A stretch of DNA of 64,000 nucleotides from Candidatus Wolfebacteria bacterium GW2011_GWE2_44_13 (GTDB taxonomy: Bacteria; Patescibacteriota; Minisyncoccia; UBA6257; UBA9933). The position numbers and the translations under genes are program-made. The notes beneath the pieces were generated by a model. That model had not been told where the DNA came from and searched no databases. It saw nothing but the letters and a program-made list of their open reading frames with translations. Location: positions 68,013 through 132,012 of the forward strand of contig LCHW01000001.1 in assembly GCA_001000675.1 (NCBI GenBank), written 5' to 3'. Shown piece after piece: positions 5,427-60,948 of the stretch. Position 1 is the stretch's first letter, and each line of letters opens with the position of its first letter.

Positions 5427-7259
5427 ATGATGAAATTTTTAACCAAGAATATACTATGGGCTGTGGGAATCTTTTTTGTAATTGCGATGTTATTTTCGCT
5501 TGCATACAAAGAAACAAAAGAGCCGATACAGATGACGCTCGATCAGGTTGCAACGAAAATTAATGCAAGTGAAGTTTCACAACTTGTGGTTAGTGGAGAC
5601 GCGCTTGAAATTGAATTAAAAAATGGCGATAAGGGAGTCTCGAAAAAAGAAGCAGAAGCAGGACTTACAGAAACGCTCACAAATTACGGCGTTACTCCTG
5701 AAGCGCTGCAACAAATTAGCTTCTCGGTAAAAGATGAATCTGGATTTAAATTTTGGATGGCTGCATTGCTTCCAATCTTACTCCCCATCCTTATTATTGG
5801 CGTAATCTTCTTCTTTGTATTTCGCCAAGCAAAAGGTGGTGCGAACCAAGCGTTTATGTTTGGAAAGGCAAAGCTGAAAATGTTCACACCGTTTAAGGGG
5901 ACGGTTTCGTTTGAAGATGTTGCCGGATTGAAAGAAGCAAAACAGGAGTTGATGGAAGTTGTGGATTTCTTAAAAAATCCAAAAAAATATCTTGCAATGG
6001 GGGCGAAGATTCCTCGAGGAGTTTTGTTGCTCGGTGCACCAGGATGTGGAAAAACATTATTAGCACGAGCAGTTGCTGGACAAGCGGGCGTACCATTTTT
6101 CCATATATCTGCTTCTGAGTTTGTTGAAATGTTTGTTGGTGTTGGAGCTTCGCGTACACGTGATGCTTTTGAAACCGCTAAAAAGGCAGCTCCTTCTATT
6201 TTGTTTATTGATGAAATTGATGCGATAGGGCGAGAGCGTGGTTCGGGCATGGGCGGAGGACATGATGAGCGAGAACAGACACTCAACCAGATTCTTGTAG
6301 AAATGGATGGGTTTGAAAAGGACACCAATGTTATAGTGCTTGCGGCCACTAACCGACCAGATATTCTTGATGCAGCATTACTCCGCGCTGGGCGATTCGA
6401 TCGACGTGTTGTTGTAGACCTTCCGACGATTGAAGATCGGGAAGCCATCTTGGCAATTCATGGGCGAGGAAAGCCACTCGCAAAAGATGTTGATCTAAAA
6501 CAAATCGCTACGAGAACACCAGGATTCTCTGGAGCAGACTTAGAAAATATCATGAATGAAGCTGCTATTCTTGCGGCACGAAAAGGAGAGAAGACAATTA
6601 TTCAACTTGATTTGTATGAGGCAGTTGAAAAAGTTTTGCTTGGACCTGAACGAAAGAGCAAAGTTATTTCACAGCGAGAAAAAGAAATTACTGCATATCA
6701 TGAAGCAGGACATGCGCTTGTGGGGTCTTCGTTGAAGCATGCAGATCCGGTACATAAAATATCAATTATTGCTCGTGGACATGCGGGGGGGTATACATTG
6801 AAGTTGCCTACCGAGGAGATGTTCTTAAAAACGCGACAGCAATTCTTAGCGGAAATCGCAACGTTGTTCGGCGGCTATGTTGCTGAACAAGTTATGTTTG
6901 GTGACAACTCAACAGGTGCGTCAAACGATTTGCAGCGTGCATCAGATATGGCGCGCCGATTGGTTACGAAATACGGTATGAGTGATAAGCTTGGTCCGCA
7001 AACATTCGGGAAAACGCACGAGTTGATGTATCTCGGAAAAGAAGTTGGCAATGAAAAGAATTATTCCGAAAAGACCGCAACTGATATCGATGCAGAAGTA
7101 AAAGGTTTTATCGATCGTTCATATTTGGTTGCAAAAAAGATTGTCGCTTCACGAAAAGATGCACTTGAAGCAATCGCAAAACGCCTTATTGAAAAAGAGA
7201 CACTTGAGAAAGAAGAATTCGATGTTATGTTAAAGGAGCTGAAGGTGAAGAAGGCATAA
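5427..7259 (+). CDS. ftsH: ATP-dependent zinc metalloprotease FtsH
   Basis: N-terminal TM, Walker [12 protein letters not shown] region, and the HEAGHAL zinc motif. Confidence 0.95.
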
Positions 7260-7299
7260 ATGCGAGATGCGAGATGAGAGGTAAGAGATGAGGAATTAA

Positions 7300-7330
7300 A
7301 AAGCGGTTCGCCTTGGCGAACCGCTTTTTG
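7300..7330 (+). terminator. Rho-independent terminator
   Basis: gcggttcgcc-ttg-gcgaaccgc followed by tttttg. Confidence 0.7.
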
Positions 7331-7352
7331 AGTATCCCCAAGTTTTTAGTAT

Positions 7353-7576
7353 TGTCATTCCGGCCTATGCCTGCCTGCCGGTAGGCAGGAGCCGGAATCT
7401 AGTATTCCGCATTGTCATCCTGAGCTTGTCGAAGGATCTGTAGTATGTAAATCATATTCCTCGATAAACTCGGGATGACAGCGCTTCCGGATTGTCATCC
7501 CGTACACAGTTTACGCTGGGTTTATCGAAGTGATACGGGATCCAGGACCCTGTCATTCCCGCGGAGGCGGGAATCC
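7353..7576. repeat. Tandem array of four different hairpin repeats, each led by TGTCAT (7353-7400, 7413-7438, 7493-7543, 7551-7576)
   Basis: Each unit is TGTCAT + stem + loop + complementary stem + C, with unrelated stem sequences. The last unit is the canonical tgtcattcccgcggaggcgggaatc. Confidence 0.7.
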
Positions 7577-7875
7577 ATCTTTTCGTACTTTTTCAAAAAA
7601 GTACGTCAAAAACTTCGAGCGCCGAAAATGGCGGAATAGGCTCGAAAATTTCTAACAAAACTACGAACTCGCTCCTGCGCACCGCTCAGACACCGCAGTT
7701 TTTGAGGAAATTTTTGTCGCCCATTTTGTCCGCCATTTTTACGGATGCTCGGGGGATGTGGGTAAAGAAGGTGGTTTTTGATCCGAAATATTCCCATGTT
7801 CGTAAAAGAGGGGACGCTCTTTCGGAGGGCGTTTTTACAGGCTCATGCGTAAAATACAAAAGAAGGGCACTTGAA
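7577..7875. repeat. Composite roughly 300-bp intergenic repeat element (variant b); related copies at 49267-49590 and elsewhere
   Basis: Shares long identical blocks with 49330-49590 (cgccgaaaatggcggaataggct...ctaacaaaactacgaactcgctcctgcgcaccgctcagaca) and the 3' end atccgaaatattcccatgttcgta with copies at 47.8, 51.2 and 54.3 kb. Confidence 0.7.
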
Positions 7876-7907
7876 GATTATTTTCAAGTAAAGTATAAAT
7901 AAGAGGC

Positions 7908-7980
7908 GCGCCTATAGCTCAGTTGGTAGAGCATCTCGCTTATACCGAGACGGTCCTAGGTTCGAGTCCTAGTGGGCGCA
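7908..7980 (+). tRNA. tRNA-Ile (anticodon TAT)
   Basis: GCGCCTA TA GCTC AGTTGGTA GAGC A TCTCG CTTATAC CGAGA CGGTC CTAGG TTCGAGT CCTAG TGGGCGC A folds as a clean cloverleaf with anticodon loop CUUAUAC. Confidence 0.8.
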
Positions 7981-7984
7981 CAGT

Positions 7985-9861: not shown

Positions 9862-10134
9862 ATGGCAATTATCAAAAAGAAAGCTTGGCCGGATTATTAC
9901 GAGCAGGTAGTGAGGGGAGAAAAGAAGTTTGATATGCGCGTTGCTGATTTCCCTGTTGTTGCGGGGGATACTCTTGTGCTAGAAGAATGGAATCCAGAAA
10001 TAAAGGAATATACTGGGCGTAGTATTAGTAAAAAAGTCGGATATGTAGGGACATTTCCGCTTGATGCGTTCGGGCAGCGGGAGGCCCTAGAGAAACATGG
10101 TCTGCATGTGATACAGTTTGAGGATGACGAGTAA
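9862..10134 (+). CDS. DUF3850 / ASCH-like PUA-fold protein
   Basis: MAIIKKKAWPDYYEQVVRGEKKFDMR...GDTLVLEEWNPEIKEYTGR matches the DUF3850 consensus (KIWPEYFEAVxSGKKTFEIR...EW...YTGR). Confidence 0.65.
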   Translation: MAIIKKKAWPDYYEQVVRGEKKFDMRVADFPVVAGDTLVLEEWNPEIKEYTGRSISKKVGYVGTFPLDAFGQREALEKHGLHVIQFEDDE

Positions 10135-10939
10135 GAAGCAACTGGAACAATTCAAGAAAATGGTTTGGGATTATTATCACGCTAATCGGCGTGATTTTCC
10201 GTGGAGGAAAAATATTAATCCGTATCGGGTCCTGGTTTCCGAAATCATGCTGCAGCAGACGCAGGTTTCGCGTGGCATCATTAAGTACAAAGAATTTTTA
10301 AAAGCATTTCCGACGTTTCCCGCACTTGCAAAAGCGTCTAATGCGGATGTGCTTACGGTGTGGCAGGGGCTGGGCTATAACCGACGCGCGCTGTATTTGA
10401 AAAAAGCTGCCGAGGTCGTGGTGAGCGAATACAAAGGAAAGCTTCCGGATACACCGGAGCTCCTTGTGAAATTGCCGGGGATTGGTATCTATACTGCCGG
10501 CGCTGTGTGCGCTTTCGCATTTAACAAACCCGTCGTTTTTATTGATACGAATGTACGACGCATCTACATCCACCATTTTTTTAACGATAAGGAGGGAATT
10601 ACTGATGCAGAACTTATTCCCTATATTGAGGCGACATTAGATAAAGAGAATGCACGAGAATGGTATTCGGCGCTTATGGATTATGGATCTATACTGGGTC
10701 TTAAAGAAGATAATGCGAATAAGAGAAGTGCGCATTATGTAAAGCAATCAAAATTTGAGGGTTCATTGCGACAAATTAGGGGGAAAATTCTTAAGCTTGT
10801 AACGAATAATAAACAGGTCACAAGAAAAGAATTGCAGAAAGTTTTAAACGAAACACCAGAGCGGATTGAAGAAGCTATTAAGGGGTTGGAGAAAGACGGA
10901 ATGCTAATTGTTAAAAAGAATACCATTGCAATTGCGTAA
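10118..10939 (+). CDS. HhH-GPD DNA glycosylase, MutY-like (no 4Fe-4S cluster loop)
   Basis: WRKNINPYRVLVSEIMLQQTQV matches the MutY N-terminus. HhH-GPD with LPGIGIYTAGAV and a catalytic Asp in VFIDTNV. No Cys-x6-Cys-x2-Cys-x5-Cys. Confidence 0.7.
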   Translation: MRMTSKKQLEQFKKMVWDYYHANRRDFPWRKNINPYRVLVSEIMLQQTQVSRGIIKYKEFLKAFPTFPALAKASNADVLTVWQGLGYNRRALYLKKAAEVVVSEYKGKLPDTPELLVKLPGIGIYTAGAVCAFAFNKPVVFIDTNVRRIYIHHFFNDKEGITDAELIPYIEATLDKENAREWYSALMDYGSILGLKEDNANKRSAHYVKQSKFEGSLRQIRGKILKLVTNNKQVTRKELQKVLNETPERIEEAIKGLEKDGMLIVKKNTIAIA

Positions 10940-11852: not shown

Positions 11853-14399
11853 ATGGGCCCTAAATTACTTGATAAACGGAAAAAGAAAGCTCTTAAGATT
11901 ATTAAAAAGCTGAAAGAGCTTTTTCCGGTTTCAAAAATTGCACTAAACTATTCCAATAATTGGGAGCTGCTCGTTGCGGTTGAACTGTCGGCACAATGCA
12001 CTGACAAAAAAGTGAATGAAGTAACGGAGATATTGTTTAAAAAATATAAAACATTGAATGATTACGTGCATGCTGATCCGCGTGCATTTGAAAAAGATAT
12101 TCATGCGACGGGGTTTTATCATAATAAAACGAAAAATATTCTTGCTGCGGCGAAGATGGTGCAAGGCCAATTTGGAGGAGTTGTGCCAAAGACGATGCAG
12201 GAAATGTTAGAGATTCCCGGGGTAGCGCGCAAGACGGCTAATGTTGTACTGGGAAGCGCGTATGGAGTTGTAGAAGGAATCGCGGTTGATACACATGTGA
12301 TACGACTCACGCGATTGTTAGGGCTTACAAGCGAATCGAACCCCGTAAAAATAGAGCGCGATTTAATGGAGATTTTACCGAAAGAAGAGTGGCTCGAATT
12401 CACGTATCGGTTGATCGATTACGGAAGGGCCTATTGCCCTGCTCGAGCACAAAAACTCTCTATAATCATCCCCCTCTTTCTCTTTTTATTACTACCGAAT
12501 AGTTCTTTTGCGCAGCAGCAGGTGTATTCGTATGATGCAATCAATACGACAATTACTGTTAACGGCGATGCAACGTTTACGGTTGAAGAGCAGCAATTGT
12601 TTAATTACGAGGCAGGAACGTTTCATCAAGGGTGGCGCGCTATTTCGCTTGATAAAATAAGCCGCATTACGGATGTGCAGGTTATTGATGGTGCAACAGG
12701 ACAACCATTACAACACAGTAGCCAACGGCTTAATAAAACCGATCCTGATAGCTGGGGAAAATATACAGGGTATACACAGGATGGGAATGTAAACATCGAA
12801 TGGTATTACGACCTTGCTAATACAAAGCACTTGTGGGTATTGCGGTATGTGGTGCACGGCGGGTTCTCGTTCTACAAAGAAAACGATCGATTATATTGGA
12901 ACGCATTAACTGACTATAGCAGTCCTATTGGACTCGCTTCTGTAAAAGTCTTATTCCCTGAGAATGCAGATCTATCTTCTATGCAGTTTGATGCGTATCG
13001 AGAAGATAGTTATGCGATAAATAAAATAGTACAGGGGAATAATAGTATCTATTTTGAAACTCCGTTTATTCAGCCATACGAAGCGTTTACCATAGACATC
13101 GCTTTTCCAAAAGGAATCATAAGTGAATCTGCATTTTGGAAAGAATGGCTTACTGCGTATTGGGGATACGTAGGCTCTGGTATTGCCGCTGTGCTTGGGG
13201 TATTGTTTTCATTATTGTATTGGTATCGCACGGAGCGCTATGGAAAAGGACGTGGCGTTATTATTGCGCAGTACGAGCCGCCGCAGCAATTGCGCCCAGC
13301 GATGGCCGAAGTTTTAGTTAAGGAAAAGATTACGGAAAAAACATGGCCGGCAACAATTATTGACCTTGCGGTTAGAGGGTATATTGCAATCAAAGAAGAG
13401 CCTGAAGATAAACTCGTTGTATTTATACGCCTTTCTCTTGCTGTGATTTTAGTGGGTATCTTAGGAGCTATTAGCGTCCTGGTGCTTTTTGTCGACGTTC
13501 CGTTTGAAGGGAGAATGCCGTTGGTTCTATTTATAGCGGCCCCAATCCTTGTCCTTATTATTGCTTATCGGAAGGAGGGCAGTATTAAAAAATCATTTGC
13601 ACCGAAGAGTTACATTTTAGAAAAAGTAAAGGAATACGAAAACGATCCTAGCCTTGAAGAGTATGAAGTTAAATTCCTGCGGATTATTTTTTCTGGCATC
13701 GACCTAGTAACTAAAGAAAAGAAAAACCATTTTTCGTTAAAAGAGATAAAAAAGAGCTCCTCGTCTCAGAGAGAGCTTGCGCGATTACTTAACCTTCTAA
13801 AGGATGATTTGTATAAGGAGACTGATAAAGACACAAAGGCATTCGAAAAAGCGATACATAAGGAAAAATATTTTATGTTTGTGCTGTTCGGCCTCACCTT
13901 TTTCTTCGCAATGCTTAATAAGATACAAATCATTGATTTGGAAAATCAGCTGCATTTCCTCGTGTTTGTGTGCGCCATTGTTGTAGCTGTTGTGATTGCA
14001 TTTATAAAATTTGAATCGCGGCTTTCGCATGAAGGATATCTCTTAAAAGAAGATTGGCTTGGGTTTAAGCTGTATTTAGAAACGGCAGAAAAATATCGTA
14101 TGCAGAATCTTACGCCTGATATTTTTGAAAAATATCTTCCGTACGCAATGATATTTGGTATTGAAAAAAAATGGGCAAAATCGTTTGAAGGTATACATAT
14201 GCAACCTCCGAGTTGGTACGGATCTTCTTCTGTCGGTATGGCTGCGGGGATTTCTTCTGGCACATCTTTTTCCCCAGTTGGTTTTAGCTCAAGTTTCTCG
14301 TCTTCTTTTTCAAGTGCCTTTGCGTCGGCAGGGGGAGGCGGGGGAGGAGGTGGATCTGCGGGCGGAGGAGGTGGAGGCGGAGGAGGTGGTGCGAGCTAG
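11853..14399 (+). CDS. Apparent in-frame fusion: endonuclease III-like HhH-GPD domain (aa 1-215, no FeS loop) + DUF2207 membrane protein with a C-terminal poly-Gly/Ser tail
   Basis: N-terminus is Nth-like (LLVAVELSAQCTDKKVN, GVARKTANVVL, AVDTHV). After ...DYGRAYCPARAQK it runs straight into a signal-peptide-like LSIIIPLFLFLLLPNSSFAQQ. TM helices follow, then WLGFKLYLETAEKYRMQ...FEKYLPYAMIFG and a SSSFSSSFSSAFASAGGGGGGGGSAGGGGGGGGGGAS tail typical of DUF2207. Confidence 0.6.
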   Translation: MGPKLLDKRKKKALKIIKKLKELFPVSKIALNYSNNWELLVAVELSAQCTDKKVNEVTEILFKKYKTLNDYVHADPRAFEKDIHATGFYHNKTKNILAAAKMVQGQFGGVVPKTMQEMLEIPGVARKTANVVLGSAYGVVEGIAVDTHVIRLTRLLGLTSESNPVKIERDLMEILPKEEWLEFTYRLIDYGRAYCPARAQKLSIIIPLFLFLLLPNSSFAQQQVYSYDAINTTITVNGDATFTVEEQQLFNYEAGTFHQGWRAISLDKISRITDVQVIDGATGQPLQHSSQRLNKTDPDSWGKYTGYTQDGNVNIEWYYDLANTKHLWVLRYVVHGGFSFYKENDRLYWNALTDYSSPIGLASVKVLFPENADLSSMQFDAYREDSYAINKIVQGNNSIYFETPFIQPYEAFTIDIAFPKGIISESAFWKEWLTAYWGYVGSGIAAVLGVLFSLLYWYRTERYGKGRGVIIAQYEPPQQLRPAMAEVLVKEKITEKTWPATIIDLAVRGYIAIKEEPEDKLVVFIRLSLAVILVGILGAISVLVLFVDVPFEGRMPLVLFIAAPILVLIIAYRKEGSIKKSFAPKSYILEKVKEYENDPSLEEYEVKFLRIIFSGIDLVTKEKKNHFSLKEIKKSSSSQRELARLLNLLKDDLYKETDKDTKAFEKAIHKEKYFMFVLFGLTFFFAMLNKIQIIDLENQLHFLVFVCAIVVAVVIAFIKFESRLSHEGYLLKEDWLGFKLYLETAEKYRMQNLTPDIFEKYLPYAMIFGIEKKWAKSFEGIHMQPPSWYGSSSVGMAAGISSGTSFSPVGFSSSFSSSFSSAFASAGGGGGGGGSAGGGGGGGGGGAS

Positions 14400-47639: not shown

Positions 47640-47865
47640 ATTTCCTTGTTCTTTTTTAAAAAAGAACCAAAAATCACGAACCGAAAATATTTTGGGGTCG
47701 CCTCCAAAACGGCTGAAGCTCGGAACTCGCACGCCAAGAGTAGGCTCGCTCAAACACCGAGCTTCTTTCGATATTTTTCCAGCGCCCTTGATCCGAAATA
47801 TTTCCATGTTCGTACGAAGGGGGAAGTCCCTATCTTTGTCATTCCCGCGGAGGCGGGAATCTATT
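47640..47865. repeat. Composite intergenic repeat element (variant a) ending in the R1 hairpin tgtcattcccgcggaggcgggaatc (47837-47861)
   Basis: Shares ccgaaaatatttcgg...gaagctcggaactcgcacgccaag...caccgagcttctttcgatatttttccagcgccct.gatccgaaatatttccatgttcgta with 51.05-51.19 kb and 54.19-54.33 kb. Confidence 0.7.
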
Positions 47866-49215: not shown

Positions 49216-49665
49216 AAAGGAGCGCGTACGCGCTCCTTTGTCATTCCCGTGAAAACGGGAATCCATCTCCTCTGCACTTTTTCAAAAAAGTGTATCCGTC
49301 GGATTCGGAATGGAATAAGCGAATCCGACAGCCCGGCACGTTGCACGCTTGCTTCGCTCGCTAGCAACGCCAAGGGCAAAACTTCGAGCGCCGAAAATGG
49401 CGGAATAGGCTCTAAAATTTCTAACAAAACTACGAACTCGCTCCTGCGCACCGCTCAGACAACGTAGTTTTTGACCTGCCTGCCGGTAGGCAGGGGAAAT
49501 TTTTATCGCCTATTTTGTCCGCCATTTTTCGGATGCTCGGGGGATACAGATTAATACAGTTTATTAATCCGAAATATTTCCATGTTTGTACATAGAATGC
49601 GCTACCGTTGTCATTCCCGTGCATTGCCTTGTCGTAGCTTTACGCGAAGACAGGAAAACGGGAAT
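49216..49665. repeat. Composite intergenic repeat: hairpin, R1 (49239-49266), variant-b module (49267-49590), and a long-loop R1 (49603-49665)
   Basis: Near-identical to 7577-7875 over more than 150 bp, and to the 50.94-51.05 / 54.10-54.19 kb modules (gtcggattcgg...cgaatccgacagcccggcacgttgcacgctt). Confidence 0.7.
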
Positions 49666-53999: not shown

Positions 54000-54410
54000 G
54001 GCATTCCTGCCCGTTCGACAGGTTTAGGGTAAACTGCGGCGGGAATCCATTACCACTTCTAAGACAATATTCTTTCATACTTTTTAAAAAAGTACTTCCG
54101 TCGGATTCGTGTCGGAGTAATCGAATCCGACAGCCCGGCACGTTGCACGCTTACTTCGCTCGCTAGCAACGCCAAGGGCAAACCTTCGAACCGAAAATAT
54201 TTCGGGGTCACTTCCAAAACGGCTGAAGCTCGGAACTCGCACGCCAGGGGTAGGCGTACTCAGACACCGAGCTTCTTTCGATATTTTTCCAGCGCTCTTA
54301 ATCCGAAATATTTCCATGTTCGTAGATACAAGAGAGTAATTCTGTCATTCCCGCGGAGGCGGGAATCTATTTAATTCTGGATTCCCGCCTCCGCGGGAAT
54401 GACAGAAAGC
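54000..54410. repeat. Composite intergenic repeat, plus a 68-bp perfect palindrome formed by two inverted R1 hairpins (54343-54410)
   Basis: tgtcattcccgcggaggcgggaatctatttaattctggattcccgcctccgcgggaatgaca is self-complementary. The module at 54070-54330 matches the 47.6 and 51.0 kb copies. Confidence 0.75.
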
Positions 54411-56214: not shown

Positions 56215-56245
56215 CATTGTCATTCCCGCGGAGGCGGGAATCCAG
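56215..56245. repeat. R1 hairpin repeat
   Basis: ttgtcattcccgcggaggcgggaatccag. Confidence 0.7.
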
Positions 56246-60535: not shown

Positions 60536-60600
60536 GGGGGTGCCCGCCGTACGGCGGGCACCCCCCTCATGTATTGTCATTCCCGCGCAGGCGGGAATCC
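60536..60600. repeat. GC-rich 14-bp-stem hairpin (gggggtgcccgccg-tac-ggcgggcaccccc) followed by R1 hairpin 60575-60600
   Basis: Perfect inverted repeat, then ttgtcattcccgcgcaggcgggaatcc immediately upstream of the GIY-YIG gene. Confidence 0.65.
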
Positions 60601-60917: not shown

Positions 60918-60948
60918 ATTGTCATTCCCGTGAAAACGGGAATCCAGA
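60918..60948. repeat. R1 hairpin (ttgtcattcccgtgaaaacgggaatccagag) immediately downstream of the GIY-YIG gene
   Basis: Match to the R1 consensus. Confidence 0.7.

Follow-up and report, generated by a model that had tools for sequence, protein, structure and literature searches.

The window analysed here, a 64-kb stretch of a Candidatus Wolfebacteria genome from groundwater (Parcubacteria, within the CPR/Patescibacteria), carries at positions 7908-7980 of the forward strand a genuine tRNA-Ile gene with the anticodon UAU. We propose that its product is a minor isoleucine tRNA that reads AUA, and that it most likely replaces TilS and tRNA-Ile2(CAU) as the sole AUA decoder of a genome that would itself be without TilS. 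Genes of this type appear to be common across the Candidate Phyla Radiation (CPR) and not an oddity of one genome. The existence of bacterial tRNA-Ile(UAU) as such is already known, and the gene in the window is ordinary within its lineage; the CPR-wide pattern, the linkage of the gene to ftsH and the division of these tRNAs into two sub-types, all described below, seem to be undescribed in the open literature that we searched, in which we found no paper joining lysidine with the Candidate Phyla Radiation or Patescibacteria.

The tRNA-Ile(UAU) gene and its identity

A preliminary description of this DNA had reported a tRNA-Ile(UAU) with a clean cloverleaf and the anticodon loop CUUAUAC at exactly these coordinates, and the position, the loop and the identification were all borne out. 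ARAGORN calls an Ile-TAT tRNA at 7908-7981 (+), one of four tRNA genes in the window, and the Rfam tRNA model RF00005 aligns end to end (positions 1-71 of 71) with 7908-7980 (+), scoring 72.9 bits (E = 4.9e-14) against a gathering score of 29 bits. Read directly, the sequence is GCGCCUA UA GCUC AGUUGGUA GAGC A UCUCG CUUAUAC CGAGA CGGUC CUAGG UUCGAGU CCUAG UGGGCGC A, a canonical 73-nt cloverleaf with stems of 7, 4, 5 and 5 bp and a 5-nt variable loop. The anticodon loop of 7 nt presents U33, the anticodon U34-A35-U36 and A37, with a C at position 38; the discriminator is A73, and CCA is not encoded. An intron or an alternative anticodon had been named as ways in which the call might fail; ARAGORN on the window gives TAT, and the gene sequence read directly contains no intron.

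To regard the gene as a decaying tRNA copy, or as a cloverleaf that arose by chance, one could point to its single-sequence minimum free energy (MFE) fold, which is not the cloverleaf and beats the folds of shuffled sequences by no more than a modest margin (z = -2.0). MFE folds that depart from the cloverleaf and are little better than shuffles are usual for tRNAs, and the support for the cloverleaf comes from comparison among homologues, not from the single-sequence fold. When 60 homologous tRNA(UAU) genes, taken from among the matches listed in the census described below, are aligned, the cloverleaf partners pair in 99.3% of cells, against 25-45% when the partners are slid; two-sided changes are seen at 16 of the 17 variable pairs, and the covariation score is 0.81 on the cloverleaf as opposed to 0.08-0.15 for the slid controls. 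A sister species (GCA_000993695.1, hereafter L002), with a DNA identity of ~89% to the window, carries a syntenic orthologue, a tRNA-Ile(TAT) at the same site, preceded by ftsH and followed by the same 116-aa ORF. When the two tRNAs (window 7908-7980, L002 4942-5016) are aligned, 14 of the 74 columns show a difference: six pairs have changed with full compensation (four of these belong to the anticodon stem), there is one change from G-U to G-C, and the D loop has one indel.

A promoter-like element 5' of the gene has also been kept. A candidate promoter at 7871-7899 (+), predicted from a direct reading of the sequence, is made up of TTGAAG (7871-7876), a 17-nt spacer and TATAAA (7894-7899), and ends 8 nt before the tRNA; a stricter consensus promoter scan does not list this element. 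In L002 the same two hexamers recur with the same 17-nt spacing and the same 8-nt distance to the tRNA, around a spacer of different sequence. With a full-length Rfam match, strong covariation across the family, stem differences from the sister species that are all compensated, and a position and promoter-like element that are conserved, we consider the reading of this gene as non-functional or spurious effectively refuted.

With regard to the amino acid that the tRNA carries, A73 is invariant across the 60 aligned family members (among the matches listed), at a position that the search pattern had left free. C4-G69 and U12-A23, which are isoleucine identity elements in E. coli, are both present in the window tRNA; at position 38, where E. 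coli IleRS uses A as an identity element, the tRNA has C. This C38, together with the fact that an anticodon alone does not fix identity and with the poor recognition of U34 by E. coli IleRS (PMC3575796), would be compatible with a tRNA charged with another amino acid, methionine for example, in a genome where AUA is reassigned or ambiguous. The protein-coding genes argue against such a code. In an alignment of 40 CPR ftsH genes, AUA stands in conserved isoleucine columns in 165 of 224 cases and in methionine columns in only 2 of 224, and its column profile, drawn from Ile/Val/Leu columns, is that of AUU and AUC, which indicates that AUA means isoleucine. Given this profile, the invariant A73 and the two E. 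coli-type identity pairs, a different identity for this tRNA is very improbable.

AUA usage, a point that the preliminary description had thought worth checking, is substantial: the codon accounts for 235 of the 1,309 isoleucine codons in 63 window ORFs (18%, or 13.3 per 1,000 codons), a share that requires an efficient AUA reader. The tRNA-Ile(GAU) of the same genome lies 1.7 kb before the window, beside tRNA-Val(GAC), and its stems are unrelated to those of the UAU tRNA, so that the UAU gene represents a separate isoacceptor. The T loop of this tRNA-Ile(GAU) (upstream flank L246, 7200-7273) reads UCCGAUU, with a C in place of the usual U55.

TilS and the reading of AUA

The preliminary description took the tRNA to imply a different solution to AUA decoding, possibly with loss of tilS. 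The tRNA does point to a reading of AUA that does not involve lysidine. As for tilS, its loss agrees with the DNA inspected, with the ORFs upstream of ftsH and with published counts for the CPR; for the genome as a whole we infer this loss and do not demonstrate it, since some CPR, such as Southlakia (see below), keep the gene. The inspected DNA comprises the 64-kb window with ~9 kb upstream and ~8 kb downstream, in all ~81 kb of a 541-kb contig from a genome of probably ~0.8 Mb. In these ~81 kb we found no tilS: tblastn with E. coli TilS returned no TilS-like gene, an HMM of three TilS N-domains gave a best E of 0.69, a search for the PP-loop motif of TilS found none, and tilS was likewise missing from the Pfam results for the larger window ORFs and from the precomputed Pfam labels of the flank genes. 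The same ~81 kb contain neither a CAU tRNA nor ileS. Nor did tblastn, the HMM, the motif search or Pfam reveal a tilS in the 0.9 Mb of census loci among the matches listed. A profile of TilS N-domains (E. coli, Geobacillus and Aquifex) run against a database of 5.8 billion proteins yielded, among the matches listed, only relatives of the queries and is uninformative on the CPR.

The distribution of TilS across the CPR can be taken from Supplementary Data 1 of Meheust et al. 2019 (PMC6744442), which gives per-family counts for 2,321 CPR and 1,198 non-CPR bacterial genomes. TilS (K04075, PF01171), flagged there as depleted, is counted in 123 CPR and 866 non-CPR genomes, that is, it is present in ~5% of CPR genomes and missing from ~95%. 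For comparison, the universal proteins EF-Ts and GyrB are counted in 1,983 and 1,985 CPR genomes and in 1,046 and 1,057 non-CPR genomes, respectively. PF01171 is listed only once in this table, which argues that there is no second, divergent and widespread TilS-like family; the TiaS family is not listed in it. The main text of that study does not discuss TilS, and the depletion sits in the supplementary table.

A CPR organism that does possess the enzyme is the cultured Saccharibacterium Southlakia epibionticum ML1, for which there is a complete genome (PMC10633639). Its tilS (SEML1_0730; PF01171 E = 6.8e-45) is located directly upstream of ftsH, and two of the three Tn-seq calls shown rate it essential; the gene order across SEML1_0729-0733 is ftsH, tilS, two hypothetical genes and a CAU tRNA ~1 kb from tilS, and the annotation has just one tRNA-Ile beside three CAU tRNAs (PMC10633639). 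The canonical parts for decoding AUA may be clustered at the ftsH locus in this organism, and the detection of its tilS implies that TilS is easy to detect in CPR. In many other bacteria, too, tilS precedes ftsH. Among the ORFs 5' of ftsH in the window, in L002 and in every ftsH-linked census locus among the matches listed, none is TilS; such ORFs in other CPR loci were entertained as possible TilS and rejected, there being no PP-loop domain in any of them. The tilS state and the tRNA(UAU) state look like alternatives to each other in the CPR.

It could be, nevertheless, that tilS and tRNA-Ile2(CAU) are kept elsewhere in this genome and that the UAU tRNA is a second AUA reader working in parallel, a redundancy of the kind suggested for Lactobacillus casei, Cyanothece and Ferrimonas. 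Taniguchi et al. (PMC3575796) describe non-CPR bacteria in which a tilS homologue coexists with a tRNA-Ile(TAT) gene, and the view in the preliminary description that the presence of tilS and tRNA-Ile2 would turn the tRNA into a misfolded call is for this reason too strict. The 123 CPR genomes with TilS (PMC6744442) and the tilS scored as essential in Southlakia (PMC10633639) are in line with a redundant decoder, and so is the small part of the ~0.8-Mb genome that the inspected ~81 kb represent. The same ~81 kb, however, surround the gene and hold neither tilS nor a CAU tRNA; tilS is lacking at the ftsH locus of two Wolfebacteria species and of 44 ftsH-linked census loci (among the matches listed); nearly all CPR genomes in the published table are without TilS; and in Southlakia, the one CPR organism whose genome is known to encode TilS, a second tRNA-Ile is not seen. 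We therefore regard redundancy as unlikely.

If the tRNA(UAU) is instead the sole AUA decoder, the unconverted UAU anticodon would read AUA by a direct U34-A pair, alongside the major tRNA-Ile(GAU), which would read AUU and AUC, and tilS would be absent genome-wide, as the published CPR-wide depletion of TilS suggests. The gene content of the CPR allows the modification state of the anticodon loop to be predicted (counts from PMC6744442). U34 would be without a cmnm5-type modification, because MnmG (K03495) is almost absent from the CPR, with 5 CPR genomes against 897 non-CPR genomes; MnmA (K00566) is counted in 1,495 and 948. A37 would carry t6A, because TsaD (K01409; 1,942 CPR and 995 non-CPR genomes) and TsaC (K07566; 1,303 and 933) are retained. 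IleRS would accept U34, a trait for which Arg or Lys at the position of E. coli W905, or else a type-2 C-terminal domain, would be expected. On the pattern of Mycoplasma mobile, the ribosome, competition from tRNA-Met or the two together would hold down the misreading of AUG.

In M. mobile, which has no tilS, a tRNA-Ile(UAU) with unmodified U34 and t6A at position 37 reads AUA (Taniguchi et al. 2013, PMC3575796), and the absence of tilS, the state of U34, the critical IleRS residue Arg865 and the rejection of AUG by the ribosome were all shown experimentally in that organism. The two cases have in common a genomically encoded bacterial tRNA-Ile(UAU) and a reduced genome, and the CPR gene content, with MnmG gone and TsaD kept, predicts the same modification state. 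They differ in that the Wolfebacteria case is known from sequence, that the trait appears common over a very large clade instead of being confined to a few species, and that the gene is linked to ftsH.

Distribution across the CPR and comparison with known systems

To survey the occurrence of the tRNA, we scanned 185,579 species genomes for a standard D arm followed by a YTTATA anticodon loop, which gave at least 120 loci; ARAGORN calls tRNA-Ile(TAT) in all 120 census loci listed. Since this total is a lower bound and the pattern fixes both the D arm and the anticodon loop, the census gives neither the fraction of CPR with the tRNA nor an unbiased taxonomic sample, and its taxon labels are those of the depositors. 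Judged by record titles among the matches listed, at least 83 loci come from explicit CPR lineages, at least 16 from genomes labelled only as 'bacterium', at least 13 from third-party MAGs labelled 'Gammaproteobacteria', and at least 8 carry other labels (Chloroflexota 2, Dormibacterota 2, Ignavibacteria 1, Planctomycetota 1 and 'archaeon' 2). The CPR labels include Saccharibacteria, Kaiser-, Taylor-, Nomura-, Uhr-, Magasanik- and Kuenenbacteria, as well as Falkow-, Vogel-, Adler-, Dojka-, Woese-, Shapiro- and Peregrini-/Peribacteria. The preliminary description had called an encoded tRNA-Ile(UAU) rare in bacteria. This holds among well-studied bacteria, where tRNAscan-SE 2.0 found tRNA-Ile(UAU) in place of tRNA-Ile2(CAU) in 17 genomes (Bifidobacterium adolescentis, Mycoplasma and Neorickettsia only), together with two archaea, but it does not seem to extend to the CPR, under whose lineage names at least 83 of the at least 120 species are recorded.

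Some of the labels deserve separate mention. The loci labelled as Chloroflexota, Dormibacterota, Ignavibacteria or Planctomycetota are L005, L121, L035, L096, L019 and L052, and both Chloroflexota-labelled tRNAs have a CUUAUAU loop. Chloroflexota and Dormibacterota are placed near the CPR in some rooted bacterial trees. Both 'archaeon'-labelled loci among the matches listed have the CUUAUAC loop. Three loci of Microgenomates type (L025, L079 and L088) contain a 71-nt CAU tRNA that starts with UGCGGGG; its D arm (GUGUACGGCUGCAC) is atypical, and the tRNA is presumably an initiator of unusual form. Since L025 has the same unusual tRNA as the Woesebacteria loci, the 'Gammaproteobacteria' label of this MAG is doubtful.

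Two sub-types of the tRNA can be told apart by the anticodon loop, and they differ in their genomic surroundings. Among the matches listed, ftsH shares the 8-kb locus with 32 of 57 tRNAs of the CUUAUAC sub-type, to which the tRNA of the window belongs, and with 11 of 60 of the CUUAUAA sub-type, which has a body like that of tRNA-Ile(GAU); a tRNA-Val is adjacent in 12 of 60 CUUAUAA loci as opposed to 2 of 57 CUUAUAC loci. Taken over the whole census (among the matches listed), ftsH lies within 4 kb of the tRNA-Ile(UAU), that is, in the 8-kb locus, in 44 of 120 loci, where chance alone would give about 1 in 120 if a 1-Mb genome is assumed, and in 25 of those 44 (among the matches listed) the tRNA follows ftsH by less than 1 kb on the same strand. 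This linkage matters because in Southlakia it is tilS that lies directly upstream of ftsH. C32 and C38 are invariant in the ftsH-linked CUUAUAC sub-type, and this loop could be part of what limits the misreading of AUG where wobble modification is missing. The class-Ia synthetases found beside the tRNA(UAU) among the matches listed are ValRS and, in one archaeal-labelled locus, IleRS.

For the CPR as a whole, our confidence is evenly divided for and against a broader proposal, namely that most CPR dropped lysidine early and read AUA with an encoded tRNA-Ile(UAU), probably unmodified at U34 and often encoded just downstream of ftsH, while a minority would keep the tilS-ftsH arrangement. The canonical system of TilS and tRNA-Ile2(CAU) performs the same task, the specific reading of AUA as isoleucine, and it shares with the proposed one its association with ftsH, which stands before the UAU tRNA in the window and after tilS in Southlakia. 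In contrast to the canonical system, the UAU anticodon is present in the gene itself, so that no enzyme-dependent conversion of the anticodon is needed, and TilS was not found in the ~81 kb inspected.

Other organisms have also moved away from the canonical system. Bifidobacterium adolescentis and Neorickettsia, which are without tilS and tRNA-Ile2(CAU), resemble the present case in carrying tRNA-Ile(TAT), and they use an IleRS of eukaryote type. Nanoarchaeum equitans and Korarchaeum cryptofilum, likewise with small genomes, encode UAU directly and dispense with the cytidine-modifying enzyme TiaS; they belong to another domain of life, and the enzyme lost is a different one. In Bacillus subtilis, a suppressor of a tilS deletion proved to be a G34U change in tRNA-Ile1 (Fabret 2011; Kohrer 2014, PMC3919564), showing, in a laboratory mutant, that an isoleucine tRNA with a UAU anticodon can take over the decoding of AUA after TilS is lost. 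The A38 sub-type of the census, with its tRNA-Ile(GAU)-like body, is compatible with an origin like that of the suppressor. The C38-type tRNA of the window, unlike the suppressor, is unrelated in its stems to the tRNA-Ile(GAU) of its own genome.

According to textbooks and recent papers, the reading of AUA depends on TilS and lysidine in almost all bacteria, and TilS counts as an essential enzyme throughout the bacteria. If most CPR use a plain UAU anticodon without MnmEG wobble modification, this generalisation would no longer hold across a very large portion of the bacterial tree. The acceptance of U34 by IleRS and the avoidance of AUG misreading would then be testable in a broad natural group instead of a handful of Mycoplasma, Bifidobacterium and Neorickettsia species. 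There would also be practical consequences for genome analysis. The N-terminal domain of TilS, TIGR02432, is one of the bac120 marker genes; as a marker of that set, its absence would depress completeness estimates of CPR genomes, and such genomes would be wrongly flagged by annotation pipelines in which three CAU tRNAs are the expected set.

The ftsH locus and other features of the region

The upstream neighbour of the tRNA is ftsH (5427-7259, +), identified by its Pfam AAA and peptidase M41 domains. The ENA groundwater contig ERZ909587 k127_247000 matches the window with 100% identity, and the FtsH protein sequence is identical in the window, in that contig, in L002 and in a JGI contig. At the DNA level, ftsH of the window is 97.4% identical to that of L002 (3001-4833), with 48 synonymous and no amino-acid changes, and the other neighbour genes of the tRNA are ~93% identical. 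The tRNA itself has an identity of 81% between the two species. A divergent tRNA next to identical FtsH proteins might suggest a recombination cassette, an idea that we rejected: the flanks are simply 93-97% identical, and all 48 differences in ftsH are synonymous. The tRNA is still more diverged than its flanks once this idea is dropped, and it would either be evolving unusually fast or have been exchanged for the allele of a more distantly related organism.

After ftsH follows a perfect 15-bp hairpin with flanking A and T runs (AAAAAGCGGTTCGCC / GGCGAACCGCTTTTT; 7298-7329, +; inverted repeat I4), a putative terminator-like element whose loop, of only 2 nt, kept it out of the results of a terminator scan; a comparable hairpin also trails ftsH in L002. 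Between the hairpin and the candidate promoter, the window has a repeat-rich spacer of ~540 bp (7330-7865), recognised from the repeat listing and the alignment with L002; the sister species is without it, and the alignment picks up again only at 7866. The spacer contains palindromic units of the form TGTCATYCC...GGRATC, among them a 25-mer at 7551-7575. This 25-nt palindromic element (TGTCATTCCCGCGGAGGCGGGAATC) and its close variants occur in eight copies in the window, where none is expected by chance: besides the copy in the spacer, they lie at 47837-47861, 49239-49263, 54343-54367, 54380-54404 (-), 56218-56242, 60575-60599 and 60920-60944.

Among the census loci the 25-mer looked like a lineage-specific marker. 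This was rejected when the exact 25-mer turned up in at least 119 JGI metagenome contigs, mostly unrelated and ranging in GC content from 30 to 70%; because of this span it has the appearance of a REP/MITE-like repeat with a very wide distribution and not of a lineage-specific one. Neither TilS nor IleRS was found in the 119 metagenome loci that share the 25-mer, and these loci give no coverage of the present genome.

The DNA before the window holds further unusual tRNA genes. On the upstream flank (L246) of the same contig, ~7.2-7.6 kb before the window start, there are two paralogous tRNA genes with insertions of ~65 nt and ~13 nt in the anticodon loop (1282-1413 and 1651-1736). Rfam scores them as tRNA with 49.7 and 56.5 bits; ARAGORN misses one of them and returns the other as 'tRNA-???'. 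They have D and T arms in common and a CCUGUyUUCUGA motif within the insert, and the insertions may be small introns or part of a tRNA-derived element. We considered these genes as a hidden tRNA-Ile2 and rejected them, as neither has a CAU anticodon. Close by on the same flank (1764-1838), ARAGORN calls a tRNA-Gly with the unusual anticodon ACC, for which the Rfam alignment shortens the anticodon loop.

Downstream of the tRNA-Ile(UAU), the window carries two genes for HhH-GPD base-excision glycosylases near each other, at 10118-10939 and 11853-14399. The product of the second, of 848 aa, has by Pfam an N-terminal HhH-GPD domain fused to DUF2207 membrane-protein domains, an unusual architecture.
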